A DNA stretch of 64,000 nt from an uncultured Candidatus Saccharibacteria bacterium (GTDB lineage: Bacteria > Patescibacteriota > Minisyncoccia > Phycocordibacterales > UBA1006): positions 5,012-69,011 of the forward strand of contig CAZDPR010000001.1 in NCBI GenBank assembly GCA_964507625.1. The letters run 5' to 3'. Below, piece by piece: positions 8,377 to 64,000 of the stretch (position 1 is the stretch's first letter; every line of letters starts with the position of its first letter). Made by a program: the position numbers and the translations under genes. The notes beneath the pieces were generated by a model, which did no database searches, was not told where the DNA came from, and worked only from the letters and a program-made list of their open reading frames with translations.

Positions 8377-8465
8377 AAAAGGTATTGCAAAAAACACAAA
8401 AGATTGTTACAACTACTGATAACCCTTCGCGTTGGTCATTGCGATTGGGTGTATTAGTAACCTAA

Positions 8466-14859: not shown

Positions 14860-15371
14860 ATTATCCAATTAATTACCTCTTCGTAATCGTCAGAGAAAAA
14901 TACTTGTCCAGGAAACTCTTTTTCGGCTACAGAGAGGATATATTCTAAATGATCAGCAATACCTCCTGTATTTGTAATTACACCAACCTTTTTCCCTTCT
15001 TCAAGCGCTATTGTAAATTCTGACAGCGTTCCAATACGACCATTTAATAAAAGGATTTTATCAGCATCGTGAATCATTTGTAAACTTCTTGCTGTAAATC
15101 CGGGTATAAACTTAATTTCATTAAAATATTCTGTATGAAGATTATCAAAACGATTATTATGATCTTTTGTGTGTTTATCAGGAGAATATGCGATTGTTTT
15201 TATTCCAAATTCTTTTGCTTTTTGTACTATTAATCCAGGAACTCCTAATGATCCACCTGTCATTATTTCAATATTTTTAATTTCTGAAATTTTTTTAACA
15301 ATTTGATAAATTAAATTTTCTGATTCTTCTGAAATCTTTTCTAATGCAGAAGAAATAATTACTATTTTCAT
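14850..15371 (-). CDS. LOG/SLOG-family protein, copy B
   Basis: 173 aa; MTGGSLGVPG...NGRIGTLSEF; about 40% identical by eye to copy A. Confidence 0.6.
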   Translation of the reverse strand: MKIVIISSALEKISEESENLIYQIVKKISEIKNIEIMTGGSLGVPGLIVQKAKEFGIKTIAYSPDKHTKDHNNRFDNLHTEYFNEIKFIPGFTARSLQMIHDADKILLLNGRIGTLSEFTIALEEGKKVGVITNTGGIADHLEYILSVAEKEFPGQVFFSDDYEEVINWIIKN

Positions 15372-18652: not shown

Positions 18653-20005
18653 TTAAGTTTGTAACATTGCACGAATTTGTTCTATATCATGAATGAGTGA
18701 AGAGTTTTCTTGAAGTTCTTTTGTAATTTTCTCATAAGAGTGCATTACTGTTGTATGATCTCGTCCACCCATTTTCTTTCCAATATGAGGAAAAGATATA
18801 TTAAAATCTTCTCGTAAAATATACATTGCTATTTGACGAGCTTCTACCACCTCTTTTCTTCTATTTTTTTCATACATTGCAGATTCTTCAATGTTATAAA
18901 AATGAGCAACAACTTTAATAATATCCTCAATAGAAATATTTTTCTTCGGTTTTATATTGTTTTTTATTAATAACTTAATTTCCTGAAGGTTTAATTCCCT
19001 TTTTCTGAGCTCCATTTGCATTATTAATGTATTAATAATCCCCTCTAATTCACGAATATTACCTTCTACATGAGAAGCAATATAATCAACTGTTTCTTCA
19101 GAAAGAGCTATTTTATATTGATTTATTTTAGATCGTAATATAGCTATACGAGATTCATATTCAGGGCGAGCTACATCAACAATCATACCTGCGGAAAACC
19201 TTGATTTTAAACGATCTTCGAGTCCTGCAATATAGTTTGGGTGTTTATCTGATGAAAAGATTAATTGTCGGTTTCTGTCATGTAAGGTGTTAAAAAGGTG
19301 GAATAATTCTTCCTGCACCCGTTCTTTTCCGCTTGAAAAGAACTGAATATCATCCATAATAATCACATCATAACTACGATATCGGTTTCTAAACTGATCA
19401 ATACGCTTATTTTGTAACGATTGAATATAATCATTTAAAAAGGTTTCAGAACTGACATAGAAAATATTTAATCCAGGGTATTTTTCTACCAAAGCATTTC
19501 CAAGAGCTTGAATAAGGTGAGTTTTTCCAATCCCCGTTGATCCGTAAATAAAAAATGGATTAAAAGTACCAAGACTTTTTAATACTGTCTGAGATGCTGA
19601 ATAAGCAACTTCATTAAATGGTCCAATAATAAATGTTTCAAATGTGTATTTTGGGTTTAAATTACTACTTTTTGGTAAAGAATGATCCAAAGGTAGTTGA
19701 GGAGCTTCTGGAGGCACAGGAGCCGTTTTTTGAGGCACAGGAGCCGTTTTTTGAGGCTTTTTAGCAATAATAAACTCAATAGATCGAATAGTATCTTTAT
19801 GGTTACGGATTGCTTTTAAAACATCTTTATAAAATTTAGTAGTAAGCCAATCCTTAACAAATTCATTAGGAACACCTACAAAGAAAACCCCCTCCTCTTC
19901 TTTTACTGCATGAGTATTTTTAAACCATGTGGTAAAATTTGCTTTTGAGACGTTCATTTCGATTTCCGCAAGAATCGTTTCCCAGAGTGTGTGTATATCG
20001 TACAT
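18653..20005 (-). CDS. dnaA: chromosomal replication initiator DnaA
   Basis: 450 aa; Walker A GSTGIGKTHL, IDDIQF, C-terminal HTTVMHSYEKI DNA-binding domain; internal PQKTAPVPQKTAPVP duplication in the linker. Confidence 0.9.
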   Translation of the reverse strand: MYDIHTLWETILAEIEMNVSKANFTTWFKNTHAVKEEEGVFFVGVPNEFVKDWLTTKFYKDVLKAIRNHKDTIRSIEFIIAKKPQKTAPVPQKTAPVPPEAPQLPLDHSLPKSSNLNPKYTFETFIIGPFNEVAYSASQTVLKSLGTFNPFFIYGSTGIGKTHLIQALGNALVEKYPGLNIFYVSSETFLNDYIQSLQNKRIDQFRNRYRSYDVIIMDDIQFFSSGKERVQEELFHLFNTLHDRNRQLIFSSDKHPNYIAGLEDRLKSRFSAGMIVDVARPEYESRIAILRSKINQYKIALSEETVDYIASHVEGNIRELEGIINTLIMQMELRKRELNLQEIKLLIKNNIKPKKNISIEDIIKVVAHFYNIEESAMYEKNRRKEVVEARQIAMYILREDFNISFPHIGKKMGGRDHTTVMHSYEKITKELQENSSLIHDIEQIRAMLQT

Positions 20006-25446: not shown

Positions 25447-25478
25447 ACTAAAAACAGTGAGGATACTCACTGTTTTTA
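25447..25478 (-). terminator. terminator overlapping the virB4-like stop
   Basis: AAAAACAGTGAG-gata-CTCACTGTTTTTAG. Confidence 0.6.
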
Positions 25479-27287
25479 GTTTAATTCATTTTTTACTTTT
25501 TTCATTTTTAAAATCTGATTAGGATCAGATGTTACAATTTGATCTTCGGTATAACTAGAAATAATTTTAATTGCAACATGTTTTAATCCTGCAAAAAATA
25601 TTCCTTCCCCTACCCCAGATTCTAACAAGGTGTATTTTTCTTCGTTAGTTAAATGGAAAACCTCCTGAAGTGTATCAATTGCAGTTGGAGATTGTTTTAA
25701 AAGTAACTGAATAGAAGAATTGGTAATAATAGGTATTCCGTATCGCGATCGCACAAAATCTCCTACATCCTGAGTAATAGTGGTAATACCCAAAAAATAT
25801 TTTCTTCCTCGTTTTGCAAGCATAAAAAGAAATGCTGCTGCTTCTTCATTTTGCATCATTACCCATGCTTCATCAACAACTAATAATCGTTTTTTAATAT
25901 TTTTTCGAACTGCATTCCAGATAAAATGAGTAATAATATACATTGCTGCAGTTTTAAGCTCATCTTCCATGTCTCGAATAGAGAAAACAATCATTTTCTT
26001 ATTAATATCAACATTAGTCGGACTATTAATAAATCCTGCCCAAGTTCCTCGGGTATATTTTCGGAGTCGTTCAATGAGTGATCCAGCCCCTTCCATTGAG
26101 GCAAGTACCATTTCAAAATCAGACATAAGCGGTGCTTCTGCTTTAGTAAAATCTGAATTAGCCGTAATATCTTTTAATGCATAGGTTTCAGTAATAGCGC
26201 GATCAATTATAGAATCTTCTTCTGGAGTAAGTCCTCCTAGTAAAATTCTAAATAATCCTACTAAATGAATAATGTTCGAGCGAAGAACATCGGAAGGTGC
26301 TTCATCTGGTCCAGGAACAGGTACATCAAATGGATTAATATGGTGCTCAGAAGAAAGAGAAATATTAAAATATCTTCCCCCTACTGACTCTGCAAGGTAT
26401 TCATACTCACTTTCTGGGTCGATAACAATAACTTCTGTTTCAAACATTAATGTTCGTAGTATTTCTAGTTTTGTTGCATATGATTTTCCTGCACCAGAAG
26501 TTGCGAAAATTACCGAATTATAGTTTGGCATCGAATATCGATCAAACAAAACAAGACCAGCATTTTGTCGATTTACTCCATATAAAATACCTTTATTATC
26601 AGTTAATTCAGAAGAGATAAAAGGAAAAAATGATGATAGTGGCCCAGTATTTAATTTTGTAGGAATATGAAGATTATCAATTCCTAATGGAATACCTGTA
26701 ATAAAACCTTGTTCTTGTTGAAAAAGTGCAGGTTTTAAATAAATCATTTGAGATTCTAACTGTGAACGAATTTCATTTTCTACCTTAAAAAGCTCTTTAT
26801 CACTATTTGCGTATATTGTAATATAAAGCCCTACCTCAAACATTTTTTCTTGTGCTTGCTGGAGACTATCCCTCAAGTTTTCAAGGTTTTGATAGGCAAT
26901 ATCAAGTTCGGGATCACGTACCATTCCTTGTTTTTCTCGTACATAAATTTGACTCTGTACTTCCGCAACTTTTTTCTGAAAATCTTTCATGATTTGTGCT
27001 GTATTAATCGGTGAAACATGCACAGAAACATCAAAAATTTTATCCATATTAACAATCGGAGCCAACCATCCTTCTGTTAAAAACTTTGGGTATGACATAG
27101 TAAAATAGGTTTTACAAATTTTGTCTCCAATTCTAATAAATCCAGAATTAATTTCTACCGCAGAAGGAGCAAGGATATCACGAAGCTCGAGTGCTGCGTT
27201 AGTATAAATATCAGTCGGAAGAACTGGGATAGCTTCGGGTTGATTATTCTGTTTTGTTTTGCTGAATAGGCTATCAAAAATTCCCAT
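25476..27287 (-). CDS. virB4: VirB4/TraE/CagE-family type IV secretion ATPase
   Basis: 603 aa; Walker A FATSGAGKSYATK, Walker B LLVVDEAWVMM; overall VirB4 architecture. Confidence 0.8.
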   Translation of the reverse strand: MGIFDSLFSKTKQNNQPEAIPVLPTDIYTNAALELRDILAPSAVEINSGFIRIGDKICKTYFTMSYPKFLTEGWLAPIVNMDKIFDVSVHVSPINTAQIMKDFQKKVAEVQSQIYVREKQGMVRDPELDIAYQNLENLRDSLQQAQEKMFEVGLYITIYANSDKELFKVENEIRSQLESQMIYLKPALFQQEQGFITGIPLGIDNLHIPTKLNTGPLSSFFPFISSELTDNKGILYGVNRQNAGLVLFDRYSMPNYNSVIFATSGAGKSYATKLEILRTLMFETEVIVIDPESEYEYLAESVGGRYFNISLSSEHHINPFDVPVPGPDEAPSDVLRSNIIHLVGLFRILLGGLTPEEDSIIDRAITETYALKDITANSDFTKAEAPLMSDFEMVLASMEGAGSLIERLRKYTRGTWAGFINSPTNVDINKKMIVFSIRDMEDELKTAAMYIITHFIWNAVRKNIKKRLLVVDEAWVMMQNEEAAAFLFMLAKRGRKYFLGITTITQDVGDFVRSRYGIPIITNSSIQLLLKQSPTAIDTLQEVFHLTNEEKYTLLESGVGEGIFFAGLKHVAIKIISSYTEDQIVTSDPNQILKMKKVKNELN

Positions 27288-29123: not shown

Positions 29124-31856
29124 TTATTTTTTCATACGACCTCGAGCATCATTAGCGGCTCTATTTGCTGCTTGATTGTTCTTAATATTAGACCCACCAA
29201 TATTTCCGTTAGTAATAACTCCTAAAAGCCCAGAAAGACCTTGAGTATACATACCGCGATCTTTTTTTAACTCATACGAACCGGCAATATTTTCAAGAGT
29301 GGTATTTAAAACTTGTTGCCCCCGAAACTGAGTATCAAGTAATTGTGTTTGTAAACCTGTTCCAATATCGATAAATGTTTGAAGTCTCCCCATTTCTTGT
29401 TCTTGATATTTTTTAGTTGTATCTTTAATCGAGTCTTCGTAAATTTTAATTCTATTATCAAAATTCTCTTTAAGTTTTGAATCAGCTTTTTTAAGAATTG
29501 CAGCAGTTTCATTTATCTTAATATTTCTTTTTGTAATTAGATCTTTAATTCTATTCATTTCTTCTTGATTATTAAGTGTTTCCGCATCTTTAAATTCTTT
29601 CGCTAATTTTTCTCCTTCTGTTTTTTCTTTTAAATAATCTTCACGAGCTTTATCGTAATCTTTCTGTTCTTGACTATTTGTTTTTTGAATTTTTAGTTTT
29701 TCAATTTCATTTTTTAACCCGTTAATTGATTGGTTTTCCATTTCGTTAACATATTCTCCTAATTTATTATTTTCGTTCAAGTATGTTCCTTTTTCTTTTT
29801 CCAATATTAATTTTTCATTTTCCAATTGTTTTTTATAGTTTTTAGTTTCAATAATTTTTTTCTGTAATTCAATGCCTTTGTTTAATAATTTATCCCCTTC
29901 TCCTTCCGTATAATTACCTGCAGTTAGTTGTTTATCTATTGCATCATACTCTGCTTCCAATTTACTCAAATCTTCAAGACCATCAATTTTTGTGTTAACA
30001 TCATCAATTTTTGTGTTAACATCATCAATTTTTTTATTGTTTTCATTAATTTTACTATTTACTTTATCACTTTGAACTGTTTGATTTCCTGTTTCGATTT
30101 CAATTTTTTGTTTCTCTGCTTCTAATTTTTCTTGGTTTTCAGCTAATTCTTTTCTAATAATATCTTCTCGTTCTTTGTTTTTAGCTTCTCGTTTACCTGC
30201 AACATAATCAGTATTTTCTTTCGATCGTTTTTCTGCATTTTTTGAAACATCGCCTAAATAATTATCAATACTTTTCTTACCATACTTACCTTCTGTTAAA
30301 TAGTTACTTTTACTACCAGTTCCAATATTAATATCACCAGCACCAATTTTATTGGTTGCTTGACCAAATCTTTTCATAAATTGGGCATTATTACGAACAT
30401 CAAATGTTAGCGCGCTTGTTTTATCTCCTGCCTGCATAAAGTTTCGTGCAGCCCAACCAGAAATACCGCCTTTTTCTGCTGTTTTTAATAATCCCTCACT
30501 ATTCCCAATAGCAGCACCTGCGCGTCCAAGTGTTTGTCTCCCTAAAAAGGCTGCTCCCCCCAATGTTGCACCTGCGGCAACACCTGTCGCCATTGTTCCA
30601 ATAGTACCACTCACCTTTGCGGCCATTTCACCGATCACTCCAGCCATTTGTGTTGCAAATTTTTTCCCTTGCATGAGAATAAAAAGAGAAATAAGTAATG
30701 GGATTAATGTTTTTAAAACAATTCCTACAACATTAATAAGCCAAAACCCATCTCCTTCTAGTTGACTCGCAACACTATTCCCAATATCAAGTTTTAAAAG
30801 AGTAGCCGCCAGATAAACAAAAAATAAATATAATGGAGTTAAAAAAGCAAGATTAGTAAAATTTTTCATCCAATTTTCAAAACCAATATAGGGATTTTTT
30901 TCTAAAAAAGGAATTGCAAATGAAACAAAAGCAATTGGAGATAAAATAATTCCAAGCCACAAACCAATAATTCGTCCAAGAAAAATTAATCCCATTTGTA
31001 CAAACATGGCAATTAATATAAGGAGTATAAAAAATATCATAAACCCAACAATAAGATATGAAGTATAAGAACCTTCTTGGTCAGTTTTTATGTTGGCCTG
31101 CTTAAAAAGTGTTTGAGGTTGAACATTTTTTATTAACTGCATGGATATTGGTTTTACTTGATTATCTCGCATTACTCTTTCAATGGTTCCAACCTTATCA
31201 ATATTAGCTTGACCGACTACAATCTGGTTTGCGATTACATGAGAAAAAACATCTGCAGTTTGAATAATTATTCTACAAAAAAACATACTGAAATTAACAA
31301 GGAGTGCCATAATAACAACGCGCACAACTGTTTTTTTTGGACTAAACCCATTCAAAACTCCATCACCTCCTTCTTTTCCTGCGATAAGCATAAAGGCAGA
31401 AGTAAAGAGGGCAAAAATAAATCCAATATTTGCCAAGTCACGAGTAATTTTCCATGCAGATTGAATACCGCTCTCAATAGAGCTCCCAGGAACACCATAC
31501 ACTATTGGGTTGATTGACATTGTTAAAAAAACATCAGCTAAAATACCGGTAAGCATTGCAATAGCATTAGGAACAAAGGTTACCAGGTCTATAATCACAA
31601 GCACTAATGAACACCCAAAATCTTTCCAGCCACAGTCGACAAAATCGTTTGCCTGAGACTCTGTTCCAGAAGTTTGAGCCAAAACAAAACTTTTTTCGAC
31701 AGACACGTTAAATAAGTTTCCACCCACATTATCAAAATCTATAGATTGACCAATGGGATTTTTAACACCCTTCTGGGTAACAGAAAAAGTCATAGGAGTA
31801 AAAATTCCCATGAAACTAAAAAAAAGTATTAACGATGCAATAAATGAACGCATCAT
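29124..31856 (-). CDS. VirB6/TrbL-like polytopic membrane protein with a long C-terminal coiled-coil extension
   Basis: 910 aa; at least 6 hydrophobic helices in the first 450 aa, G/A-rich segment, then a K/E/N-rich coiled coil containing a KIDDVNT tandem repeat. Confidence 0.5.
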   Translation of the reverse strand: MMRSFIASLILFFSFMGIFTPMTFSVTQKGVKNPIGQSIDFDNVGGNLFNVSVEKSFVLAQTSGTESQANDFVDCGWKDFGCSLVLVIIDLVTFVPNAIAMLTGILADVFLTMSINPIVYGVPGSSIESGIQSAWKITRDLANIGFIFALFTSAFMLIAGKEGGDGVLNGFSPKKTVVRVVIMALLVNFSMFFCRIIIQTADVFSHVIANQIVVGQANIDKVGTIERVMRDNQVKPISMQLIKNVQPQTLFKQANIKTDQEGSYTSYLIVGFMIFFILLILIAMFVQMGLIFLGRIIGLWLGIILSPIAFVSFAIPFLEKNPYIGFENWMKNFTNLAFLTPLYLFFVYLAATLLKLDIGNSVASQLEGDGFWLINVVGIVLKTLIPLLISLFILMQGKKFATQMAGVIGEMAAKVSGTIGTMATGVAAGATLGGAAFLGRQTLGRAGAAIGNSEGLLKTAEKGGISGWAARNFMQAGDKTSALTFDVRNNAQFMKRFGQATNKIGAGDINIGTGSKSNYLTEGKYGKKSIDNYLGDVSKNAEKRSKENTDYVAGKREAKNKEREDIIRKELAENQEKLEAEKQKIEIETGNQTVQSDKVNSKINENNKKIDDVNTKIDDVNTKIDGLEDLSKLEAEYDAIDKQLTAGNYTEGEGDKLLNKGIELQKKIIETKNYKKQLENEKLILEKEKGTYLNENNKLGEYVNEMENQSINGLKNEIEKLKIQKTNSQEQKDYDKAREDYLKEKTEGEKLAKEFKDAETLNNQEEMNRIKDLITKRNIKINETAAILKKADSKLKENFDNRIKIYEDSIKDTTKKYQEQEMGRLQTFIDIGTGLQTQLLDTQFRGQQVLNTTLENIAGSYELKKDRGMYTQGLSGLLGVITNGNIGGSNIKNNQAANRAANDARGRMKK

Positions 31857-31903
31857 AACTGTTGTTAGTATAACATAGGTAGTTATTTAATTACAATAAA
31901 AAT

Positions 31904-31930
31904 AAAAAGCCATAACGGCTTTTTATTGTG
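31904..31930 (-). terminator. internal terminator/attenuator within the T4SS-like operon
   Basis: AAAAAGCC-ataa-CGGCTTTTTATT. Confidence 0.55.
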
Positions 31931-34793
31931 AAAATGAATCTTTAAAAATATAACTCACAATTTCACTTTCTTTTGTGGTATACCACTGAGATCCATTAAT
32001 AAGTTTACATCGTAATTCTCCATTTTTCTTTGTACCCCTATCATCATTAACTTCTAATAACCATACAGAAAATGGACAAAGATAATGACGATTTAAACTT
32101 CTTTCTCCTGGGTCTTGATTAAAAATTTCCCAAATATTTCGCGCAGGTTGTACCTGGTATTTATCGCTCGAATCACGACTTTCCCGAATACCTGTATCCT
32201 GATAACAAGGTCCAGTGGTTGGGTTTGCGCATTGACCACCCTCTATCATATCTTCTGGAAAACGGGTTGGGTCAGTAGTAAGAATCGATGAACTACCATC
32301 CTGAATACCCAAACGAACTACATCAGTTCTAAACTCATTTTGTCGTCGTATTAGTATTTGTCGTAATTGTTCATGAGCATTTTTATTTGTTGGAGCACTT
32401 GGGTTTCCAATAAGCCCAACATTTTGTTCAGTAATAGTTCTAAGTAATCTACAATCATGGAGATTGTCTTGAATGTCTAAGGTTATGGATCGTAATTCAT
32501 TAATATCTAATTCTGACTGGTCAACATCTCTTTTTATTGAAACTCTTTCAGCAACTGCATTATATTCTGTTCTGATTTGATTTTTTTTCTCTAAAAATAA
32601 TTCAGATCGGGATATTGGTGCGGTTCCCAATATCTGCTCTCGTCGTTGTTGCAACTCTACAACAGAAGGTTGTCCAAAATTCCAATAATCAGATGCAGTA
32701 ATACTGGTCCCTTGAATAGTATCTATTTGAACTAATTTAAAATATGCTTCTGGTTTTTCCCAAATATTCCAAAAATGATTCATTACATAGTCAAACTCAC
32801 CTTGTTCACTAGTTGGAACATCTGTAGCAGTTGAATTTTTTACCCAATTCAGCATTTCTGTTTTATCCGCCCTTGAAAGCGCTTTCCATTCCGAAGGGGA
32901 AAAAACAATTTTTGTTCGTATTGATTCAGGAATAATTCCACTAGGAATCAATGCAAAGCTTTGACGAATATCATTTTTAAGCTTTCTTAAAACATTTAAT
33001 GCAGTTTGTTTTTTAATTAGATCGGATCGTTTTTTTCCGTATACTTTTTGCACATCAATTAATTTATTGGTTTGAGATTGAAAAGTAAATGCTCCTGGAA
33101 TATTTCGCTCTGGGTCTGACATCCATACTTCTACTTCTGCCTTAGCGAGAGGTACTGCGGTTTCAATAATATCTTTTGCTTGCTCTCTATTTTCTTGTTT
33201 ATTATCAGTTCCTCCCCCTGATGCAAGTTTTGCTTCTAAATTTCTTGTTTGTACTTGAACATATTTATCAATTTTATCTACAAAATCAAAGTCAGGACCA
33301 GGAACACATGCGCTGAGTTGCGAAACGAGCTTTGGAAATGATTTGTTTTCATTTACTCCATTTTCTTCTACAGACACCAGTGGTTTACCTCCGATAATAG
33401 ATATGTATTCTTGAATTAGTCGTAATTCTTGCTCTGTATATTCAAGCGCAAGACTAAAATCAGATCGTAAATCCACAACGTTTATAGGGGCTTGTGTCCA
33501 ATTTATAATTCCACCTGAAACTGATTGGAGTTGTTCTGGTCCTCCAATGGCGGGGGGTGATTGTCGATAATCAGCACGAAGTGATGCAAGTCCCGACTGA
33601 AGAAAGCTGTTTGCCATACTTACAAAAATACCCGCAACCACCTCTCCAATTTCATCAACGTTTTTAATTTTATCCATCGCGAGATCAGTAGCTCCTTGCA
33701 GACCACTCGATACTAACCCTAAAGGATTTTGGATTGTTTCTACTAAACATCGTCCAAAATCTTCAACTAAAACTTGTGTATTTGTTGCGAGCGTGTTTCT
33801 TAATCCCTGTACCTGACCCTGAATTTCTTTTATTTCCTCTAGTTCTTTATTATACCGGGCAATATCATTTCCCCAGTTTTTATATTCATCTTGTAACATT
33901 GACATTTCTATTTGTAGTTGTTGTGCTCTCGTTTCATTTCCCGCATTTTTTGCTTCTTGTATTTTAGGTGGAAATGCAGTAATTTTGGGAGATAAAAGCA
34001 TTTGTTCCTGTATTGCTTCTTGTATAAGTGTATTTAATCGATTGATTTCTTGTTGCGCCATTTTTAATGCGGTAGTATCTTCACCTGTTTCAATCTGTTG
34101 TTGATTTACACCCTGAAACTCATCTCTATTTTTCTTTATTGTTTTAATTTGTTGTGCATAGTCAGAAAAATTAAGTGAACACGCCTGTTGCTGAGGGAGT
34201 ATTCCTGGGCTCGTTAATTTAATCATTTCGTTTTCCCGAGCACGCTCAATAGTTACCCCTAATTGTCGTTGTGCGATCAAGCTTGAACCAATTCCAGTAT
34301 TTCCAGGAATAGACATGGCGAGCAATCCATCGTAACCACCAACACTTGCGTCTTCGTAAAATTCCTGCCAGCGACTACCAACAACTCTATCAAGATTAAA
34401 ACCACCAATAGTGTCAGGTATACCAGGTCCTCCAGCTGTTGAATAAGCAAAAATCATACTACGTGCAATATTTTGAGCGAAAGGGTTTTGTGAAACCTCT
34501 AAGTCAGTAACAAATTTTTGAATTTTTGTTCGTTCGAGATCTGCAAAATAACTATTAAAATCATTTACAAAACTTGGCTGACTATCGTCACCACTGGCCC
34601 CACCATTTGCCTTATTAAAAATTTTATTAGCAAGTTTCGTTCCCGCAGTAGACGCAAGTACATATGCAAGCGTGTCGAGTCCATATTCTTTTATTTGGTT
34701 TGCAACATCAACAAATTGAGCTTGGGATATTTGAGGAACCATGATTACAAAAAGTAATAAAAGGGTAATATTTTTTTTTGTTTTCTTAAACAT
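31923..34793 (-). CDS. large secreted hypothetical protein (956 aa, signal peptide)
   Basis: MFKKTKKNITLLLLFVIMVPQISQAQ signal; no recognisable catalytic motif; candidate surface, pilus or adhesin component. Confidence 0.5.
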   Translation of the reverse strand: MFKKTKKNITLLLLFVIMVPQISQAQFVDVANQIKEYGLDTLAYVLASTAGTKLANKIFNKANGGASGDDSQPSFVNDFNSYFADLERTKIQKFVTDLEVSQNPFAQNIARSMIFAYSTAGGPGIPDTIGGFNLDRVVGSRWQEFYEDASVGGYDGLLAMSIPGNTGIGSSLIAQRQLGVTIERARENEMIKLTSPGILPQQQACSLNFSDYAQQIKTIKKNRDEFQGVNQQQIETGEDTTALKMAQQEINRLNTLIQEAIQEQMLLSPKITAFPPKIQEAKNAGNETRAQQLQIEMSMLQDEYKNWGNDIARYNKELEEIKEIQGQVQGLRNTLATNTQVLVEDFGRCLVETIQNPLGLVSSGLQGATDLAMDKIKNVDEIGEVVAGIFVSMANSFLQSGLASLRADYRQSPPAIGGPEQLQSVSGGIINWTQAPINVVDLRSDFSLALEYTEQELRLIQEYISIIGGKPLVSVEENGVNENKSFPKLVSQLSACVPGPDFDFVDKIDKYVQVQTRNLEAKLASGGGTDNKQENREQAKDIIETAVPLAKAEVEVWMSDPERNIPGAFTFQSQTNKLIDVQKVYGKKRSDLIKKQTALNVLRKLKNDIRQSFALIPSGIIPESIRTKIVFSPSEWKALSRADKTEMLNWVKNSTATDVPTSEQGEFDYVMNHFWNIWEKPEAYFKLVQIDTIQGTSITASDYWNFGQPSVVELQQRREQILGTAPISRSELFLEKKNQIRTEYNAVAERVSIKRDVDQSELDINELRSITLDIQDNLHDCRLLRTITEQNVGLIGNPSAPTNKNAHEQLRQILIRRQNEFRTDVVRLGIQDGSSSILTTDPTRFPEDMIEGGQCANPTTGPCYQDTGIRESRDSSDKYQVQPARNIWEIFNQDPGERSLNRHYLCPFSVWLLEVNDDRGTKKNGELRCKLINGSQWYTTKESEIVSYIFKDSFSQ

Positions 34794-57320: not shown

Positions 57321-59525
57321 ATGAATCAAATTTTTTTTAGAAACCAGCAAAGTATTTTAAAAGAAAAACCAGGTGATAAAAAAATTGAAAGTTTTGAAGA
57401 CCTTTCAAAGAATTTTGATTTCTATAACCTAGATCAAAAGGGATATAGTAATTTTGTAAAAGATTTCTCAAATGAATTTCTTGAAAGAGAATTTAAATTG
57501 GGGAGAATAATAAAAGACCCTACAGGAAGGCTTGTTGTAAATACTCAGACAGAGGATTTTATTAAAAGTGCTATTGATAGAATTAGTAAATTTAAAACAA
57601 GAAGGCCTGACGATGTTTCATTTTTACTTCTTTTATATAGTGATATTTTTATAAAAACTGAAAATGGACTAGAAAAATTCCTAGATATTCCAAAAACCAA
57701 AGATCATTTATTGACTGGATCAGAAGGTTTTCATGATTTTCTCTCCTTAAAAGGTGTTTCTCCAAAAGTGGAAATAGTTTTACCAGATGGAACAAAAACA
57801 AATCCTTTAGAAATCTCTTTTTTGAGAGCATGTAGGAAATATAACATTTCTAGACAAAAGGGTGATAAGCTTTTTTATACTAATCCAGAAACAGGAAAAA
57901 GAGAAAGATTTTTCATAAAAAGAATTGAAGATGGTTCTATAAAAATGAAATATTTTAAAGAAATGTTTAATATAGAAAAAATAAAAGAAATCCTACATAA
58001 TTGCTTCGAGGAAGAGATAATTAAAACTACAGATTTTCGACTAGACAATAGAGATAATTTTGGCTTAGATGAAAAAAGTTTTGAAAATAAAAAAGTTTTT
58101 TTTGGTCCCAAGTATGCAAGTTTTACCACTATTCCTGGCTATTCAATACGTTATTATTTAGGTAGAAATAAAATACCAGGTATTAATATTGACTGGAAGC
58201 CAACAATAAAATTATCTAGACTAGACAAAAACACCGCTGCGTTTATAGACTCAAGTTATGGTGTTAATAAAATTATTGCAACACTTGACTTATTCCAAGA
58301 TAAATATGCTATAGAGAAAATGTTTCTGACCGCAAAAGAGTTAGGAGTTAAAGATCCTGATGCAAATTTAGTACTCAATAATGATTATACAGAAAAGAAC
58401 ATACAATCTTTTGATATTAAAAATATTTTACCTCAATTTGTAAAGGAAAACCCACTAGATCACCTAGATTTCTTAAGTCAGGTTACTGATGTAAAAAATG
58501 TTATAAATATGACTAGAAGTGTATTAGAAAAATTAAACATTTCTGTTCTTGAAATACCATTCAAACAACAGGTATTACTGTTCGGCTCTCTTAGTCAAAT
58601 AGGAAAGGAGGATGAGGTTATAAATTTAGTTAAAAAATTTAAAATTAATGGATTAAAAACTTTCCTTTCTCTTGAACATGGTGGACAAGAAATGGGTGAT
58701 AAAATTCTTGAGCTAGGTAAGATACTCGAACAACACGATGCAGAGCGTGTATTTACTGGATACGCACAAATTATTGATCAAGCAGATTCGTTAAAAAATC
58801 GTCTAGAAAATTCATTACAAGATCGGGATATAGTCTCACTTGAACTAAAGAAGAAAATCCCCCACCAGATATATGATGCGTTGTTACTTCGTGCAAAAGA
58901 TATTTTAATAGGCGCTCATATGGTTGCAACAGGAACGATTGAAGGAAAACTCGATATTGATGAAGTGTGTAATGCACTTGCAGGTATTACTAAAATGCTT
59001 CATATTATTAATCATTTACATACCCAGGATTACTATCAGTTTACTAAAACACTTGAGACACCCCAAAATCATAAATATCATATTATTGATTCTGTAACAC
59101 AACATGAATACATCTTAAAAATTTTCTTGCGACCATATGCAGAAAAAAACGCTCAAGCCCGTGCCAATTTTGAATTATCTTTTGACACAAAAAATCCAGA
59201 TCCAATATTACAAAAAACATTTTATAATGAAATTATTTCACATACCCAGAATAAAAAGATATCAGGTTCAGTATTACGTATTGGTATTGATCGAGAGGAT
59301 TATGATGGAGTTGGTCGTGTATCACTCGATATAGGAAGGTCAGAACGCAGTGATACAGAACTTACTCGTACTGGAGATATACTTGGAAACTTACTTTCAT
59401 ATGCATCTATCGATGGCCACCATACCACAGAACCATTCAGTTCAGAATTTGGTGATCCAGAAACATTCGCACAACTTGTAAACCTACTAGGAACGTCATT
59501 AATAAAACAAAAACAGCCTAATTAG
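57321..59525 (+). CDS. hypothetical 734-aa protein
   Basis: long ORF with native codon usage; no recognisable motif. Confidence 0.45.
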   Translation: MNQIFFRNQQSILKEKPGDKKIESFEDLSKNFDFYNLDQKGYSNFVKDFSNEFLEREFKLGRIIKDPTGRLVVNTQTEDFIKSAIDRISKFKTRRPDDVSFLLLLYSDIFIKTENGLEKFLDIPKTKDHLLTGSEGFHDFLSLKGVSPKVEIVLPDGTKTNPLEISFLRACRKYNISRQKGDKLFYTNPETGKRERFFIKRIEDGSIKMKYFKEMFNIEKIKEILHNCFEEEIIKTTDFRLDNRDNFGLDEKSFENKKVFFGPKYASFTTIPGYSIRYYLGRNKIPGINIDWKPTIKLSRLDKNTAAFIDSSYGVNKIIATLDLFQDKYAIEKMFLTAKELGVKDPDANLVLNNDYTEKNIQSFDIKNILPQFVKENPLDHLDFLSQVTDVKNVINMTRSVLEKLNISVLEIPFKQQVLLFGSLSQIGKEDEVINLVKKFKINGLKTFLSLEHGGQEMGDKILELGKILEQHDAERVFTGYAQIIDQADSLKNRLENSLQDRDIVSLELKKKIPHQIYDALLLRAKDILIGAHMVATGTIEGKLDIDEVCNALAGITKMLHIINHLHTQDYYQFTKTLETPQNHKYHIIDSVTQHEYILKIFLRPYAEKNAQARANFELSFDTKNPDPILQKTFYNEIISHTQNKKISGSVLRIGIDREDYDGVGRVSLDIGRSERSDTELTRTGDILGNLLSYASIDGHHTTEPFSSEFGDPETFAQLVNLLGTSLIKQKQPN

Positions 59526-59537
59526 GCTGTTTTTGTT
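59506..59537. terminator. bidirectional terminator between convergent genes
   Basis: AAAACAAAAACAGCCTAATTAGGCTGTTTTTGTT. Confidence 0.65.
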
Positions 59538-60366
59538 CGTGGAGTGGATGTTTTTCTTTTGCAGTATTCCAAATAAAATTGAATATAATGAGGAATGTTG
59601 TATACGTAGCATAATCGTCAATAATAGTAGTAATCATTGTTTCTCCAAAAGAAGTAATACCAACTTTTTGTTTACCATAGAGAATAATTTGGGCTGGAAT
59701 ATTAAAAACCTCAATAGGAACAACTTGACGTTCTACAAAGTGTTTTTCATCAAATTCTTTTACCCAATGAAAAGTATCTTCTACTATTGGAGTGATTGCT
59801 TTAGTATGGATATTGTTTGTCACCTGTTTTTGAATTTGTTTTAATATTTTATCATCTACTTCGGGGTGGTTTCGATCAGCTGGTGATTGAATAAGAAAAA
59901 TATCTTTTTTTTCACTGATAATATCAGACCATAATCGTTCAAGCCCCTTGATACCTTCAAAAAATTGAACCCCTGGTTTTTCTTGAAATAAATTAAACTG
60001 AGATAAAAACGTGCCAAGATTCGCAGAAACAGTTTCTTTTGCAAGTTGGATATTTTTTTCTTGACTTTCCAACATGTCGATCAGGCGATCGGGATGAGAA
60101 GGGGAATAGGTGGTTACTGTCCCAGTACCACCTTTTTTCTGTACAAGTCCTAAATGCTCCAATTGTTCAAGTGTTTTATAAACTAACCCCCTTTTAACAC
60201 CTGTCCATTTTGAAAGTTCTCCAGCTTTTTGAGCACCTTTTTCTAATAATGACTGATAAATAAGCGCTTGATCTGCTGAGAGGCCTGATTGAATAAGAAT
60301 GTTTTCTTCTGTCATACCTCGATAGTATATACTATTTTGTTTTGTCATGCAAATATGACAAAACAT
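59518..60366 (-). CDS. wHTH (TrmB-like) putative regulator, divergent paralog 4
   Basis: N-terminal ...ALIYQSLLEKGAQKAGELSKWTGVKRGLVYKTLEQLEHLGLVQKK wHTH; divergently transcribed from the ncRNA-candidate promoter. Confidence 0.45.
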   Translation of the reverse strand: MFCHICMTKQNSIYYRGMTEENILIQSGLSADQALIYQSLLEKGAQKAGELSKWTGVKRGLVYKTLEQLEHLGLVQKKGGTGTVTTYSPSHPDRLIDMLESQEKNIQLAKETVSANLGTFLSQFNLFQEKPGVQFFEGIKGLERLWSDIISEKKDIFLIQSPADRNHPEVDDKILKQIQKQVTNNIHTKAITPIVEDTFHWVKEFDEKHFVERQVVPIEVFNIPAQIILYGKQKVGITSFGETMITTIIDDYATYTTFLIIFNFIWNTAKEKHPLHEQKQPN

Positions 60367-60430
60367 TTAATTAAAAAAGCTATATTTTATAATGTTTATT
60401 TTAAAAAATATAATTTTTATTCACAAGTCA

Positions 60431-60459
60431 TTGACAAAACAATATGATTATGCTATACT
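60431..60459 (+). promoter_or_regulatory. consensus sigma70-type promoter (TTGACA-17 nt-TATACT) firing rightward
   Basis: TTGACA at 60431-60436, 17-nt spacer, TATACT at 60454-60459; predicted TSS about 60466. Confidence 0.6.
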
Positions 60460-60465
60460 GTGGGT

Positions 60466-61264
60466 AAGAAAATGAGATATGAAATTAATCACATCTCAGA
60501 TTCAGTTCTTTCCATACAGATTATCTATTCAATTAAGAACGTACTACCGAATGGTCAGGGGAGCCAAAAATCGCCATAACGAAGAAGTAGAGACGAGGAG
60601 AGCTTAACCGAGTAGATAATGGTTCATAGAATGATCGGAGTAGGAAAACAATGACTTGAACCTCATCTGTTCCCTATATTCCACTAAGTGCTTAGCGGCC
60701 GACGGATTGCATCATTCACACAGTCTTATAACGAGATCTGCTGGGATAATACGACTAACCCCCGTATTACCTAGAAATCTCTTTAGAAGAAAATTATTTA
60801 AGAGGAGAGATCTTACATAATTCTAAAGAGGAGAGAAATCTTCTTTGTAAATTGAATAGACACTGACCACAAAACCTGATGAGGTGTGTAACGCACGGTA
60901 GGGGGTTGTGGGTGCAGATAACATATAAGTTTTAAAGACAATCTACTCACAAAGTAATAAACAGTGGAGGATGATTGTCTACCTTATTGAGCCGGCAGGG
61001 TTACCCGCGCCAGATCCGCGTCTCCATTGGAGACCTGGGATCATTTCCGGGTAGTCGGCTCATTGGGTTTGCACCCTCCTGAACTAGGGACCACCAGTTT
61101 AAGGATGGGGAGGGGCAGTGGCTGAGTTCACTATAACCCGTCCCGCTCCAAAGATGACTCAGTCACGACTCTGTTAGATCGGAGAACTGAGTTGAGATGT
61201 TAGTGAGGGTGCAAAAAAAATATAAGGGGAGAAAAACCGAGCAATCGGCCTCCCCTCTTTTATC
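60466..61264 (+). ncRNA. candidate large (about 800-nt) structured non-coding RNA of unknown family
   Basis: bounded by a consensus promoter and a GGGGAG...CTCCCC+TCTTTTAT terminator; no ORF of 60 aa or more in any frame across about 900 nt; GC well above the genome background; numerous local hairpins and a duplicated AAGAGGAGAGA element. Confidence 0.35.
61226..61264 (+). terminator. Rho-independent terminator ending the ncRNA candidate
   Basis: GGGGAG-aaaaaCCGAgcaaTCGGc-CTCCCC then TCTTTTAT. Confidence 0.55.
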
Positions 61265-61730
61265 CAGCAGAGGAGAGAATCGTCTGTTGGTAGAAGTTGT
61301 GAAATTGTTTCCAGAACTTTCTGTTCAATAGTATTGAATGGTTGGTTATGGAAATAATGTCAAATATGGTCAGCCTTCCGGGGCTGACCGTCGTGGGTAA
61401 GATAGATTTGCCCACGAAAACTGCGGGCAAAAAAGCCCGCAAAAAATATTTCAAACCTTTCACCGGTGGGTCGACCATCGGGGAAAGGTTGAAAGCCGCA
61501 GGTGTTACTTTAAAGTAACACCTGCGGTGGTCACCGAATGACCTCAAAAATGTCGGCGTGATAGAGTGATCCTTACGAGAAATGGATTGCAGGTTCATTA
61601 GACCAAAGCGTGTTTGCAAAGTAATGCCTTGGCATGAAATGCAGAGATCTTTGGCAAGCAAACAGAGCCTGTAAGCTCTGGCGGTACCTAAAATAAAACC
61701 GCGCTTTTCTTTTTTTAAATCATATAATAT

Positions 61731-62165
61731 ATGATTATAAAAAAAGAAGTCAATTCCCTTCAAATCCTCGAAATTTTCGACGGATTTGGAGGGGTGTTCC
61801 TTGGAGCACTGAGTCTGTTCTTGAAACAGCAGTGGGATATCTCCCTCTGCATTGAAAGAGCAGATTCACTTGCCGAAGGGCTCCACGAGGAGATTGATGG
61901 TTTTGAAACAGTAAACCTAAATTATTCCTGGGAGTCACAAGGTGACGATGAACTTGTAATCCACTACTTTTCACGTAGTGGAAATGAATACAAGTTCATC
62001 CTAAACAAGGGATTTGCTTTGTGGGATCGTAAAAAATCCCACAGAGTAGAATTTTTCAATGGAACCTCGTTAGAGAGTTTCATTGAAAAGGTGTGTGCCT
62101 CAGAAGGTACACACCCGAATCCTTTGTTTAGAAGGAACACGACCACCACAGACACCGAAATATAG
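61731..62165 (+). CDS. doubtful 144-aa ORF in the GC-elevated, hairpin-rich region
   Basis: starts right after the AT-rich palindrome ATCATATAaTATATGAT; region contains strong hairpins (for example GTGTGTGCC...GGTACACAC) and overlapping antisense ORFs, so coding status is uncertain. Confidence 0.2.
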   Translation: MIIKKEVNSLQILEIFDGFGGVFLGALSLFLKQQWDISLCIERADSLAEGLHEEIDGFETVNLNYSWESQGDDELVIHYFSRSGNEYKFILNKGFALWDRKKSHRVEFFNGTSLESFIEKVCASEGTHPNPLFRRNTTTTDTEI

Positions 62166-62759
62166 TAGGTGTCAGTGGTCCTCGGAGTTAGGAAGTTTTT
62201 TCCTTCGAGGTAAAACCGGACAATGTGTCTGGCGTAGTGAACCAATAAGCTACGAACAGGTGAATGATTGTGAAAGGTTTCCAAGGGAATCAATCAAAAC
62301 TTAGCCACCAAAAAGAACGGCGTTTGATAGTGAGTACGCTTCGTGCCAGCAATGGAATAACACGAGAAAACTGTCTGATAGTGTCACCTACTACGTGGTG
62401 AGCCTAGCGGAAGCAGATCCGACATGACGAGAAGTCACAGTTATCCCAAGCAGGCGTGGTTGCCTGCTTGGGCAAGAGGGTTATGGCAAAGTAATTTGCC
62501 ACTCTTATTCCATTATCAAGTTTGTAATTTGATAGTGGATTAGAGGTAAATTGGTAAGAGTATCAAGAATGCATGGTTCACCATGTTTTTTTATTACTCT
62601 TACCAAGGAACGCACGTTGTGCAAGTACCTTCCGAAAAACTGATTCTCGTGAAAGCCATGCCAGGCAGGAAGACGAGTGAGGTAAACAGTTCACGCCGAG
62701 TATGTTCTCGGAAAAATTCTGGATGAAATGAAATCCCTGGCCAGACAGGGTAAGAAAAT

Positions 62760-63314
62760 ATGGCTAAAACTTTGAGTTTGGCAGAATTTTCTCAAATCGC
62801 AAAAGCAGCGCAAGCGCGCGTTGCTGAGCGTGGTCCAGCCTACTATGGCTGGGTGAATGCGCCTGAAAGAACAGGTCGCATTTTCACCCAAACCCAAGGC
62901 TGGGGTCAATCAGCCAAAAAAGTAAAAGCCTCCCCAGTGGAGGCTTTAGAAATTTATAAGAAAAAATTGGATGGAGCGTACGGCGAACGGTTTGTAATGA
63001 GCCTGGGACTTATCGCCTCACTCATTGCGAACGGATATTCTGTTCGTTTTGTGCAATTCCAAAAGGAGGCAGGCGTGCCGTTTAACGCCTCCGGCTGGAC
63101 AGTCATCGTCGTGGAGACGATGCCAATTTTTCACATCGCTCCGGAGGATCTCCGGTTGAGCGATGTTCAGGATCTCGTAGAGATTCTGACTGATAACCAA
63201 GCTCCAGATGTGGCTTGGAAAAAAACCAATAAAGTCGGCGAATTCGCCGCCTTACTGGCTGGCTCAATCGAGCCCGGGCTGGACTTGGTAAAAATTGCTC
63301 AGGAGAATTCTTAA
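62760..63314 (+). CDS. hypothetical 184-aa protein with foreign (about 50% GC) composition
   Basis: clean ORF with protein-like composition; no recognised motif; lies in the GC-elevated island. Confidence 0.4.
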   Translation: MAKTLSLAEFSQIAKAAQARVAERGPAYYGWVNAPERTGRIFTQTQGWGQSAKKVKASPVEALEIYKKKLDGAYGERFVMSLGLIASLIANGYSVRFVQFQKEAGVPFNASGWTVIVVETMPIFHIAPEDLRLSDVQDLVEILTDNQAPDVAWKKTNKVGEFAALLAGSIEPGLDLVKIAQENS

Positions 63315-63533
63315 TCTCTTGAGCTATGTCCTACGCGAGACCGTAGGAAGAGCACATGCCTGACGTGCGAATTCTGGTTAATCAGGTAATGAGAGTTTGG
63401 TTGTAACTCTTGAAAAAACAATCGACAGGGTTAAAGGGTTAACATGGAGAGCAATCTCCAACTGTCTCCGTCTCATAGGCGGACTGATGAGTCTTGTTCT
63501 GAATAATACTGAAGAACGAAAGACGAAACAGGA

Positions 63534-63797
63534 ATGGTTCCAAACATGTTTGAGTGGGTATTTTTTATCTATTCAAATATGTTTGGAACCTGTAAGGTTC
63601 CCGGTTGCTGTAAACCAGCAATCGGGAGCTACTGGGGTGGTTCTCCTGGCGTATGTCAGGAGCACTTTGATGCCCCAAAAAAGGCCGAACGTGAAAAAAA
63701 AGAAAGAGTCTATAACGAGGCTCTTTCTGCAATCATGCGTAAGTATGATTGCTCACGTGAGGCTGCTGAAATAATACTTCGTAAAGGGGTATTATAA
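63534..63797 (+). CDS. small Cys-rich (putative zinc-binding) protein
   Basis: ...GTCKVPGCCKPAIGSYWGGSPGVCQEHF... C-x4-CC...C-x2-H cluster; GC-rich island. Confidence 0.3.
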   Translation: MVPNMFEWVFFIYSNMFGTCKVPGCCKPAIGSYWGGSPGVCQEHFDAPKKAEREKKERVYNEALSAIMRKYDCSREAAEIILRKGVL

Positions 63798-64000
63798 TTT
63801 CAGCTCCCCCTGTCTCGATGGCACAACAGGGGATTCCAAGAAGGCAAAGCCTTCATCGAGAATAAACTTCTTGGACATAGAAACTGATTCAACTATGTAA
63901 AAAAGATCAGAAAGCAGATTCGTGAACACTGCTTGGAATAAAGTTCACCCCAACGACTGCGGGTAAAAGTCACAAAGGTTCCACCCATCACGCGTGGTTG

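Follow-up and report, generated by a model that had tools for sequence, protein, structure and literature searches.

What is the GC-rich block that closes a 64-kb stretch of chromosome from an uncultured Candidatus Saccharibacteria bacterium (contig CAZDPR010000001.1)? An earlier reading of this DNA (the original prediction) had described an abrupt rise in GC content from about 60.4 kb to the end and proposed a mobile element or horizontally acquired block, a different replicon, or a chimeric contig. We refer to the whole 64-kb stretch as the window, to its own locus as W, to the related contigs that we compared with it as L001-L042, and to proteins by P numbers. The window stops inside the island of W, the visible part of which is 60.4-64 kb. 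Our preferred answer, to which we give a probability of about 0.5 as a whole, is that this block is the start of a region of putative conflict-module genes, placed behind a conserved expression platform and transcribed into an RNA that would be saturated with hairpins and divided by hammerhead ribozymes.

The GC-rich end of the window is a real island start

Per-kb GC is 0.23-0.39 across positions 1-60000 and goes from about 0.32 to about 0.45 at the end, as described earlier; the last four kilobases stand at 0.362 (60001-61000), 0.451, 0.445, and 0.460. The tetranucleotide profile that had been suggested as a check places 60001-63000 at 3.4 standard deviations above host 3-kb windows. Synonymous sites carry the difference in GC, with GC at third codon positions (GC3) of 0.36-0.54 in four island open reading frames (ORFs) versus 0.15-0.32 in 14 host genes. 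The boundary proposed at about 60.4 kb is sensible in that a transcription unit begins there, at the best sigma-70 site of our scan (60431-60459), which also bears out the reported coincidence of boundary and promoter. The strong rise in GC, however, lies nearer 60.95 kb.

The block is the real start of an island and not an assembly error. An independent Logan contig built from other reads (L001, three samples) carries the TrmB gene described below, spans the boundary, and is 100% identical to window 59508-61525; the same junction architecture is present in four other genomes. L001 terminates exactly in two 30-nucleotide (nt) palindromes (window 59506-59535 and 61496-61527), and because both of its ends fall in palindromes, we attribute the assembly stop to them. 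Unitig-type assemblers will break up hairpin-rich islands of this kind, which databases will therefore underrepresent. The idea of a different replicon fails as well, as the window is an ordinary chromosome segment encoding DnaA, PolA, a class A penicillin-binding protein (PBP1), CTP synthase, ComM, UvrD, CCA-adding enzyme, and four tRNAs, and phage and plasmid records contain nothing that matches the island DNA. Its ORFs likewise have no PHROGs or PADLOC match. We agree with the original prediction that no integrase, tRNA end, or direct repeat is visible, and no long direct repeat was found in the visible part. It had also named synteny in relatives as the sign of a native structured-RNA locus; syntenic homologues of the region are largely what we found.

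Predicted hairpins fill the island

We predicted RNA structure by minimum-free-energy (MFE) folding and expressed it as a z score against dinucleotide shuffles, for the plus strand (z+) and the minus strand (z-). Four host controls gave z scores of -1.7 to +1.2, and W 60467-60935 gave -2.0. In sliding windows the structured zone of W runs from about 61.0 kb to the window end and is made of local hairpins, with stems of up to 25 bp and 66-74% of bases paired. Per kb, the W island has 6.5 stems of at least 8 bp, and the host has 1.4. The zone contains the following features.

60936-61341, plus strand: leader segment, strongly structured (MFE -160 versus -121 kcal/mol shuffled, z -6.7)
61731-62165, plus strand: hairpin array that is open as a 144-amino-acid (aa) ORF (z -14.3, 70% of bases paired, stems of up to 16 bp)
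62166-62759, plus strand: non-coding hairpin array upstream of the 184-aa gene (MFE -213 versus -157 kcal/mol shuffled, z -9.2; minus strand less strongly folded, z -7.4)
62760-63314, plus strand: gene of the 184-aa protein, a homologue of the C-terminal domain of an S-4TM effector (coding sequence z -9.2)
63462-63531, plus strand: candidate type III hammerhead ribozyme with a complete core, CUGAUGA...GAAA, and stems I/II/III of 7/5/4 bp
63534-63797, plus strand: six consecutive hairpins (stems of 25, 15, 11, 10, 10, and 8 bp), open as an 87-aa "Cys-rich" ORF (z -15.9, 74% paired)
63798-64000, plus strand: continuation of the island to the window end (GC 0.45, z -0.9 to -3.5)

The three hairpins quoted in the original prediction exist, at 61496-61527, about 62445-62473, and 62090-62115. 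The stretch around them was said to hold overlapping ORFs only, but it includes a conserved 58-aa ORF (61342-61518). The 144-aa ORF has no homologue in any fetched locus and no Pfam, PHROG, or PADLOC match. As for the reported small Cys-rich protein, the sole match of the 87-aa ORF among 5.8 billion proteins is itself, so that it is probably an orphan and not a conserved gene. Because both ORFs lack homologues and coincide with hairpin arrays, we regard them as doubtful genes. We note a small zinc-ribbon-like ORF (CxxC...CPKCG) inside the leader region of the L003 island, at about 6190-6352; the 87-aa ORF of W has a C-x4-CC...C-x2-H pattern, and no homology between the two was detected.

Related islands are structured in the same way. 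The structured zone of L004 fills the interval between its flanking repeats, helicase coding sequence (CDS) included. In L036 and L039 the structure starts past the leader and spans unrelated cargo (z+ of -3 to -18), with the neighboring large protein and TrmB genes near 0. Homologues of the 184-aa gene have CDS z scores of -6 to -13 in 10 of 16 cases. Individual hairpins are not shared: the MFE pairs of W in the 184-aa CDS are common with homologues to only 0-15%. We rejected a specific conserved mRNA structure in coding regions, having found neither conserved hairpin positions nor compensatory evolution, and in the close pairs L036/L042 and L007/L026 stem substitutions were no more pair-preserving than shifted controls. 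The hairpins are thus lineage-specific, lie mostly at synonymous or non-coding positions, and are not kept by compensatory change. It is apparently the total degree of structure in the sense transcript that is kept up. L039 is hyper-structured with hardly any GC elevation, and we therefore take structure as the primary trait and GC as its consequence in AT-rich hosts; raised GC is best explained as a compositional by-product of RNA structure and not as the composition of a donor.

The polarity of the hairpins favors sense-strand RNA as the structured molecule. Among 52 tetraloops counted by hand, 15 are GNRA and 2 are the reverse complement, TYNC; G-U pairs make up 14% of long stems; and in most windows of W and L004 the plus strand has the lower z score. 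We rejected CRISPR arrays, the RNA repeats of type III toxin-antitoxin systems, and repetitive extragenic palindromic (REP) or miniature inverted-repeat (MITE) families, as each hairpin has a sequence of its own and they form no repeat family. The lack of an Rfam match also led us to drop known large RNAs and introns of group I or II. Rfam models of microRNA precursors match below threshold at L017 2297-2403, L042 208-271, and L036 7121-7172. The long near-perfect hairpins produce these false matches, which might in turn help to find further islands.

A TrmB platform precedes the island

Upstream of the hairpins lies a set of elements, which we call the platform, together with a conserved left neighbor.

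57321-59525, plus strand: 734-aa protein without a Pfam family, conserved left neighbor of the platform (GC3 0.18, z about 0)
59518-60366, minus strand: TrmB-family winged-helix regulator, divergent from the island promoter (Pfam PF01978, E 2.6e-11; z -0.6)
60338-60365, no strand assigned: palindromic operator-like site TGTTTTGTCAT-N6-ATGACAAAACA with perfect 11-nt arms, overlapping the TrmB start
60431-60459, plus strand: sigma-70 promoter, TTGACA-17-TATACT, TG-extended (11 of 12 matches, best in the scan)
60513-60928, plus strand: structured leader RNA domain of about 410 nt, recognized by nhmmer conservation, covariation, and the recurring AGAGGAGAG
61342-61518, plus strand: small ORF, 58 aa as listed, with the core ...FKPF[TS]GGSTIGERL..., last element of the platform (z -7.5)

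The TrmB assignment rests on an N-terminal domain (residues 28-92) that scores 43.7 bits against PF01978, above the 25.6-bit cutoff. A TrmB gene stands at the same place in L002, L005, L014, L036, L037, L039, and L040, and in L002, L005, L014, L036, and L039 the position of the 734-aa protein is taken by a homologue (600-970 aa). Equivalent palindromes are found in L002, L036, L039, and L041, and the island promoter also precedes the leader in these four and in L004. The small ORF has five homologues with 53-73% identity, each downstream of the leader and one of them the 53-aa ORF of L002; in W its stop codon falls inside a perfect 16-bp hairpin (61496-61527). The junction and platform are shared by W, L002, L036, L039, and L041, and L042 groups with L036. 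Hence, a platform composed of TrmB, palindromic operator, promoter, leader of about 410 nt, and ORF of about 50 aa is present in at least five genomes, with differing cargo. The contigs L036-L042 read as large protein, TrmB on the minus strand, a gap of about 700-850 nt, small ORF, and then differing genes.

The operator half-site of W repeats at the -35 region of the island promoter. Half-site and -35 flank co-vary between genomes, W having ATGACAAAACA and TTGACAAAACA and L039 having ATGACATATCA and TTGACATATAT. Because the two change together, the sequences suggest that TrmB may control both its own gene and the island by binding the operator. We also note a 12-mer, GGGTAAGAAAAT, that occurs just past the -10 (60462-60473) and directly before the ATG of the 184-aa gene (62748-62759), which may reflect a shared 5' end, a translation signal, or chance. 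In L002 a 17-nt string of the promoter -35 region, AAGTATTGACAAAACAA (8477-8493), repeats 6.4 kb downstream (14901-14917), near the far end of that contig's GC block.

L002, which has the closest retrievable relative of the 184-aa ORF, is syntenic with the window through the CCA enzyme, tRNAs, UPF0102, a protein of about 732 aa, TrmB on the minus strand, the gap, and the 53-aa ORF, and continues with a 191-aa ORF, a 183-aa homologue of the 184-aa protein, and a DEAD helicase. Its GC-rich block (0.40-0.53 over a background of about 0.35) ends about 2.6 kb past the 183-aa gene. The flanks closest to W are those of L039 (TrmB 61%, large protein 41% identity), and those of L002 are 28-30% identical. 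Because flanks at the same site have diverged to 28-61% identity, the platform is old and vertically retained; its cargo is exchangeable. The W island itself is therefore old at this site, with a GC content that has not drifted toward that of the host.

The leader is a predicted structured RNA family

With nhmmer, window 60430-60990 matched L041 (3.5e-84), L036 (2e-55), L039 (4e-46), and L002 (5e-42). A five-sequence alignment of the leader (60513-60928) has 82 consensus pairs, and 94.3% of pair cells are standard versus 41-48% in slid controls, in which partners were displaced by 1-3 columns; the sequences are few, and the structure was derived from these same five. Both sides change in 23 pairs versus 2-6 in the slid controls, and none of 500 column shuffles reached the observed score. 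A covariance model of the core (R1, 60718-60847) scores 124-146 bits in these five loci and nothing convincing elsewhere. When we compared 60300-64000, leader and island, with Rfam 15 (4227 models), no model reached its gathering score and E-value mode gave chance-level matches only. The leader is thus a putative structured RNA family of about 410 nt, with covariation support and without an Rfam family.

AGAGGAGAG occurs exactly three times in 64 kb, always on the plus strand within 60801-61277, and clusters likewise in the leaders of L002, L003, and L004. W has an insertion of about 330 nt relative to L002, at about 60930-61260 (the nhmmer blocks skip 60927-61259). We dropped the notion of one leader family across all islands, as L003 and L004 align patchily to W and R1 fails to recover them. 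A second motif, CACCGAATG, was also dropped: it is weak, with two matches in the window, one of them elsewhere on the other strand.

Candidate hammerhead ribozymes lie between cistrons

The hammerhead of W reads CUGUC, stem I, CUGAUGA, stem II, GAAACAG, with C at position H17 and all core positions in place. The predicted cleavage site follows GUC at 63466 and would separate the 184-aa cistron from the downstream sequence. Rfam Hammerhead_3 (RF00008) scores W 63459-63534 at 30.0 bits (E 0.0013) and related copies at 32.2 (L018), 36.7 (L036), and 34.1 bits (L042), over an E range of 1e-4 to 5e-3. Five further copies, all on the sense strand and intercistronic, were found at L018 1006-1056, L004 1942-1990 and 4568-4646, L036 5606-5670, and L042 1452-1512. 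Their stems measure 5-8/3-5/4-5 bp and have type III topology (I and II loop-closed, III open). Our stem-aware scan expects about 0.15 matches per shuffled dataset. The copies in L036 and L042 keep the core and differ in the sequence of stems I and II. From position and strand, we infer that these ribozymes would cut a polycistronic RNA between its cistrons.

The 184-aa protein belongs to a rare family

Substitutions in the 184-aa gene relative to homologues follow codon position (about 0.25/0.17/0.6 per codon position 1/2/3), which makes it a true coding gene, and its family aligns as protein without gaps over 25 sequences. It was first described as having no recognizable family, and it does lack a Pfam, PHROG, NCBIfam, or PADLOC match; it nevertheless belongs to a conserved family. 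We found 76 homologues, none with a Pfam domain, and a profile search among 1.84 billion representatives returned 50 clusters at 50% identity. The family occurs in metagenome-assembled genomes (MAGs) labeled Saccharibacteria, Moranbacteria, Falkowbacteria, and others, where housekeeping genes often flank it, and a relative lies on only one IMG/VR contig. AlphaFold2 gave a confident model (pLDDT, the predicted per-residue confidence, 88) that has no fold match among solved structures in the Protein Data Bank (PDB).

The family profile matches P0091 and P0092 (E 2e-32 and 4e-32), and BLASTP aligns the 184-aa protein to P0092 with 35% identity over 168 aa (E 6e-27). Both are S_4TM fusions encoded directly downstream of SMODS genes (L034 and L035), in the manner of the antiphage signaling system that is based on cyclic oligonucleotides (CBASS). 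The W protein corresponds to the C-terminal domain alone, the S_4TM effector part being absent. Its homology to this domain suggests that it may be a sensor, or a sponge that sequesters a signaling nucleotide. We note that P0077 (867 aa), P0080 (355 aa), P0120, and P0121 contain two or three stretches of the 184-aa type, or weak matches within very large repeat proteins.

Cargo and mobility in related islands

Cargo differs between islands. L036 and L042 carry a 177-aa protein, a DHH enzyme, and 390-aa and 414-aa proteins and have no 184-aa gene, and L039 and L041 carry other gene sets behind the platform (BLASTP between loci). A DHH phosphoesterase of about 400 aa is found in L004, L005, L010, L036, and L042 and matches NrN (PDB 9lqc, E 5.5e-9; PADLOC DHH_CorA, E 6e-20), an enzyme that specifically degrades the SAM-AMP messenger of CorA-type III CRISPR systems (PMC10600005). 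The helicases of L003 and L004 have the Pfam domains DEAD, Helicase_C, and HA2_C, match TIGR01967 at E 9e-73, below its equivalog cutoff, and are of the DEAH/RHA class by comparison with HrpA, Prp43, and Prp22 in the PDB (E about 1e-58). In W a helicase gene would lie past 64000, and 61520-62760 holds no remnants of other module genes. We note a family of about 145 aa that is cargo behind the platform in L041 (1307-1735) and stands beside a stand-alone 184-aa gene, on the opposite strand, in L007 (9237-9689) and L025 (789-1235), hinting at a recurrent partner.

The clearest sign of movement comes from L004, where a 6.7-kb GC-rich structured island lies between 79-nt direct repeats that are 97% identical (939-1017 and 7687-7765). 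The right repeat overlaps the final ~24 codons of a peroxiredoxin-like gene. No integrase or recombinase was found in this island or in the visible part of W. Between 526 and 1017, L004 has a tRNA-Leu(CAA) whose 3' end recurs twice more downstream, in repeat units of about 144-187 nt (with one run of N), which look like scars of repeated integration. A tRNA-Leu(CAA) also lies about 400 nt from the 184-aa gene in L015, and the L039 island ends at a tRNA (6144-6197). Flanking repeats of the att type are present in L004 and none is visible in W, whose island continues beyond the window. All platform-bearing relatives have the site occupied. The original suggestion of a mobile element or horizontal transfer therefore stands for the island type, given the L004 insertion between repeats and the rare, patchy 184-aa family, but not for the W copy, which is old at one site. 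The type thus moves on long timescales, and the W copy is a long-term resident at its platform.

Repeats at gene boundaries occur in other islands. A 28-nt repeat surrounds three genes in L005, and in L002 a 93-nt direct repeat (95% identical; 13230-13322 and 14200-14292) flanks a 210-aa ORF just past the helicase. In L003 an element of about 130 nt precedes successive island genes (6354-6489, 7563-7692, and 12209-12353; weaker at 8300-8405 and 10453-10562) and consists of a GC hairpin with T-run, promoter-like hexamers, a small GGCGC hairpin, and a Shine-Dalgarno sequence. It resembles a portable cassette boundary of terminator, promoter, and untranslated region.

Other features of the window

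The DnaA gene lies at 18653-20005, and the replication origin may be within the window; the cumulative GC skew has its minimum near 35-36 kb, away from dnaA. A TraG/VirB4-like P-loop ATPase (PF19044) is encoded at 25476-27287, beside two proteins of about 900 aa without a Pfam family. Large ORFs at 29124-34793 neighbor this gene, and the group is a possible type IV secretion or conjugation-like chromosomal cluster.

Alternative explanations

Could the GC-rich block instead be recent foreign DNA, a genomic island or prophage remnant that took its GC from a GC-richer donor? Its GC3 and tetranucleotide signature are unlike the host, the protein family is rare and patchy over MAGs labeled as different phyla, the L004 island is flanked by repeats beside tRNA-Leu remnants, and hammerhead ribozymes are common in mobile contexts. 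Yet W, L002, L036, L039, and L041 share one junction between flanks that are 28-61% identical, a long residence without compositional drift. Island GC is 10-20 points above the local host in hosts of 30% to 55% GC, for which one donor is insufficient, and L039 is hyper-structured without GC excess. With no integrase, phage, or plasmid gene in or near the island, no phage or plasmid DNA match, and a relative on just one IMG/VR contig, we consider a recent foreign origin quite improbable. An assembly chimera at about 60.4 kb would account for an abrupt change in composition at a promoter-rich AT tract; it is refuted by the 100% identity of L001 across 59508-61525 and by the TrmB-promoter-leader junction repeated in L002, L036, L037, L039, L040, and L041, and we give it practically no weight. 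The hairpins might otherwise be DNA-level palindromes of an integron-like cassette system with a single-stranded DNA stage, an explanation that we judge unlikely. It would fit a fixed platform with variable cargo, the boundary repeats of L003 (~130 nt), L002 (93 nt), and L005 (28 nt), a minus strand that also folds far beyond shuffles and sometimes beyond the plus strand, and stem turnover without compensation, as palindrome-generating mutation predicts. We found none of the islands to carry an integrase, Rep, or relaxase, however, and the hairpins fill whole coding regions, beyond the boundaries. The 15-to-2 ratio of GNRA to its reverse complement, the 14% of G-U in long stems, and z+ below z- across W and L004 also speak for RNA, and the sense-strand hammerheads point to RNA processing.

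Two further explanations make the RNA itself the element. Pervasive, positionally unconserved structure in coding RNA is a hallmark of some RNA virus genomes. The locus could accordingly be the DNA stage, or a domesticated copy, of a virus- or viroid-like RNA replicon with a compact nuclease-resistant RNA, perhaps packaged or exported. The literature examples of such structure that we found were viral only, and hammerheads, island-encoded DEAH RNA helicases, and a protein without known fold as the commonest component would suit this idea. We think it very unlikely, as no RNA-dependent RNA polymerase, reverse transcriptase, or capsid-like protein was detected, the promoter is of the host sigma-70 type under a chromosomal regulator, and cargo varies between loci, unlike that of a replicon with a fixed genome. 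A purely non-coding giant RNA of the OLE, GOLLD, or ROOL kind, with spurious ORFs, is less credible still. The extreme fold z scores, the leader covariation, and the two orphan ORFs that are really hairpin arrays speak for it, and a purely non-coding reading may hold for 61731-62759 and for 63534-63797. Codon pattern, gap-free alignment, confident fold, and the CBASS-fusion domain refute it for the 184-aa gene. Moreover, the small ORF is conserved as a protein, the cargo of relatives includes recognizable enzymes, and no large RNA in Rfam matches.

A proposed conflict module behind the platform

We return to the reading that we prefer, in which 60.4-64 kb would open a cargo region of 4-7 kb, placed behind a conserved expression platform on the chromosome. 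The island would be a biological-conflict module, for defense or counter-defense, acting on nucleotide second messengers, on RNA, or on both. We favor this because, of the three recognizable cargo families, two suggest immunity through nucleotide second messengers and one suggests RNA remodeling. In such a module, (i) TrmB would keep the island promoter under control; (ii) the 184-aa protein would bind or sequester a signaling nucleotide; (iii) hammerheads would split the polycistronic RNA into units; (iv) hairpin saturation may shield island transcripts from single-strand-specific RNases or from RNA-guided targeting; and (v) an island-encoded helicase would keep the hairpin-rich RNA translatable. 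The island type could move through site-specific integration, as in L004. Protection of RNA as the specific rationale of the hairpins is a point that we hold far more loosely than the package as a whole.

Several observations weigh against this reading. The visible island of W has no cyclase or membrane effector and none was recognized in related islands, for which we scanned W 60.4-64 kb and the recurrent island proteins of L002-L005 for cyclases and, for the cargo of L036, L039, L041, and L042, used BLASTP between loci and a precomputed Pfam listing with no cyclase domain in it; the W island is for this reason not a CBASS operon. Helicase and DHH enzyme come from relatives, and the visible part of W covers neither. 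The sensor or sponge role has as its sole basis the position of the domain in two fusion proteins. The RNA structure is predicted throughout, 4 of 16 homologous 184-aa CDSs are unstructured (z near 0), and the CBASS-fused versions of the domain are neither hyper-structured nor GC-elevated. In L039 the minus strand folds equally well or better in several windows, so that a DNA-level or antisense contribution is possible. All hammerheads score below the Rfam gathering threshold of 48.5 bits, and the first copy in L004 has A-A at positions 10.1/11.1.

The most specific form of the proposal is a new kind of locus in bacteria of the candidate phyla radiation (CPR) type. A TrmB platform would express exchangeable conflict genes as hairpin-protected, hammerhead-split, GNRA-capped, synonymously recoded RNA with its own DEAH helicase, as an adaptation to RNase warfare or to immunity directed at RNA. 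The 184-aa protein would have a new fold for binding or sequestering nucleotide second messengers. In this full form we regard the proposal as possible but doubtful.

Comparison with known systems

Our search of the literature on hammerheads in CPR/Patescibacteria, on genome-scale ordered RNA structure (GORS) in bacteria, and on S-4TM returned nothing comparable, and we found a hairpin-packed, hammerhead-cut transcript described for no other bacterial chromosomal locus. If our reading is true, a whole multi-gene transcription unit of a bacterial chromosome is selected for RNA that is structured throughout. Until now this property has been associated with the genomes of RNA viruses; in W it would be strong enough for a 13-point local GC shift. 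Some "foreign-looking" GC islands would then need reinterpreting. The locus would add a structured RNA family of about 410 nt and recurrent hammerheads as intercistronic processing sites. It would also tie a rare protein without known fold to the ligand-sensor position of CBASS effectors and place it beside an NrN-like phosphodiesterase and RNA helicases in organisms about whose immune repertoire little is known, as an entry point to a new signaling or anti-signaling component. As a design, the platform would be a compact natural solution for nuclease-resistant, self-processing polycistronic RNAs.

The arrangement recalls integrons in its fixed platform, divergent gene, strong outward promoter, and varying downstream genes, and in the repeated elements at gene boundaries of some relatives. 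Unlike an integron, its divergent gene encodes a TrmB regulator without a Phage_integrase domain in place of the IntI tyrosine recombinase. No attI or attC was identified, an attC consensus not having been sought, and W has no repeated boundary element. The W platform adds a 410-nt leader RNA and a small ORF, and structure fills whole genes. With integrative islands at tRNA genes and gene 3' ends it shares the 79-nt repeats of L004, which include the 3' end of the target gene and lie by tandem tRNA-Leu 3' remnants. It differs in having no integrase inside and in the tie of the W, L002, L036, and L039 islands to the TrmB platform.

Among immune systems, the closest are CBASS operons with S-4TM effectors, as the 184-aa protein is homologous to the C-terminal domain that stands there beside SMODS. 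The island protein lacks the 4TM part, the examined islands have no adjacent cyclase, and the CBASS versions show neither the GC elevation nor the hyper-structure. To our knowledge, the 184-aa model resembles none of the sensor and sponge folds in the PDB (SAVED, CARF, STING, Acb2, and Tad). The DHH cargo of relatives matches NrN chains (PMC10600005) and differs from NrN in length (about 400 versus 260 aa), in an unassigned N-terminal half, and in having no Cas10 or CorA nearby.

At the RNA level, the hammerheads agree with type III hammerheads (RF00008), including those of bacterial and phage operons, in core, topology, and intercistronic sense position, and differ in their sub-gathering scores of 30-37 bits, with predicted cleavage, and in the unusually long stem II of W (34 nt). 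Like the GORS of RNA viruses and single-stranded RNA phage genomes, the island has excess folding energy in coding RNA and stems that are not positionally conserved; unlike them, W is part of a bacterial chromosome, in one regulated transcription unit with no replicase or coat gene. The leader of W is long (about 410 nt), multi-helical, and supported by covariation, as are OLE, GOLLD, ROOL, and raiA. It has no such Rfam match and, in contrast to those RNAs, forms the 5' part of an mRNA-bearing transcript, always after the TrmB gene.

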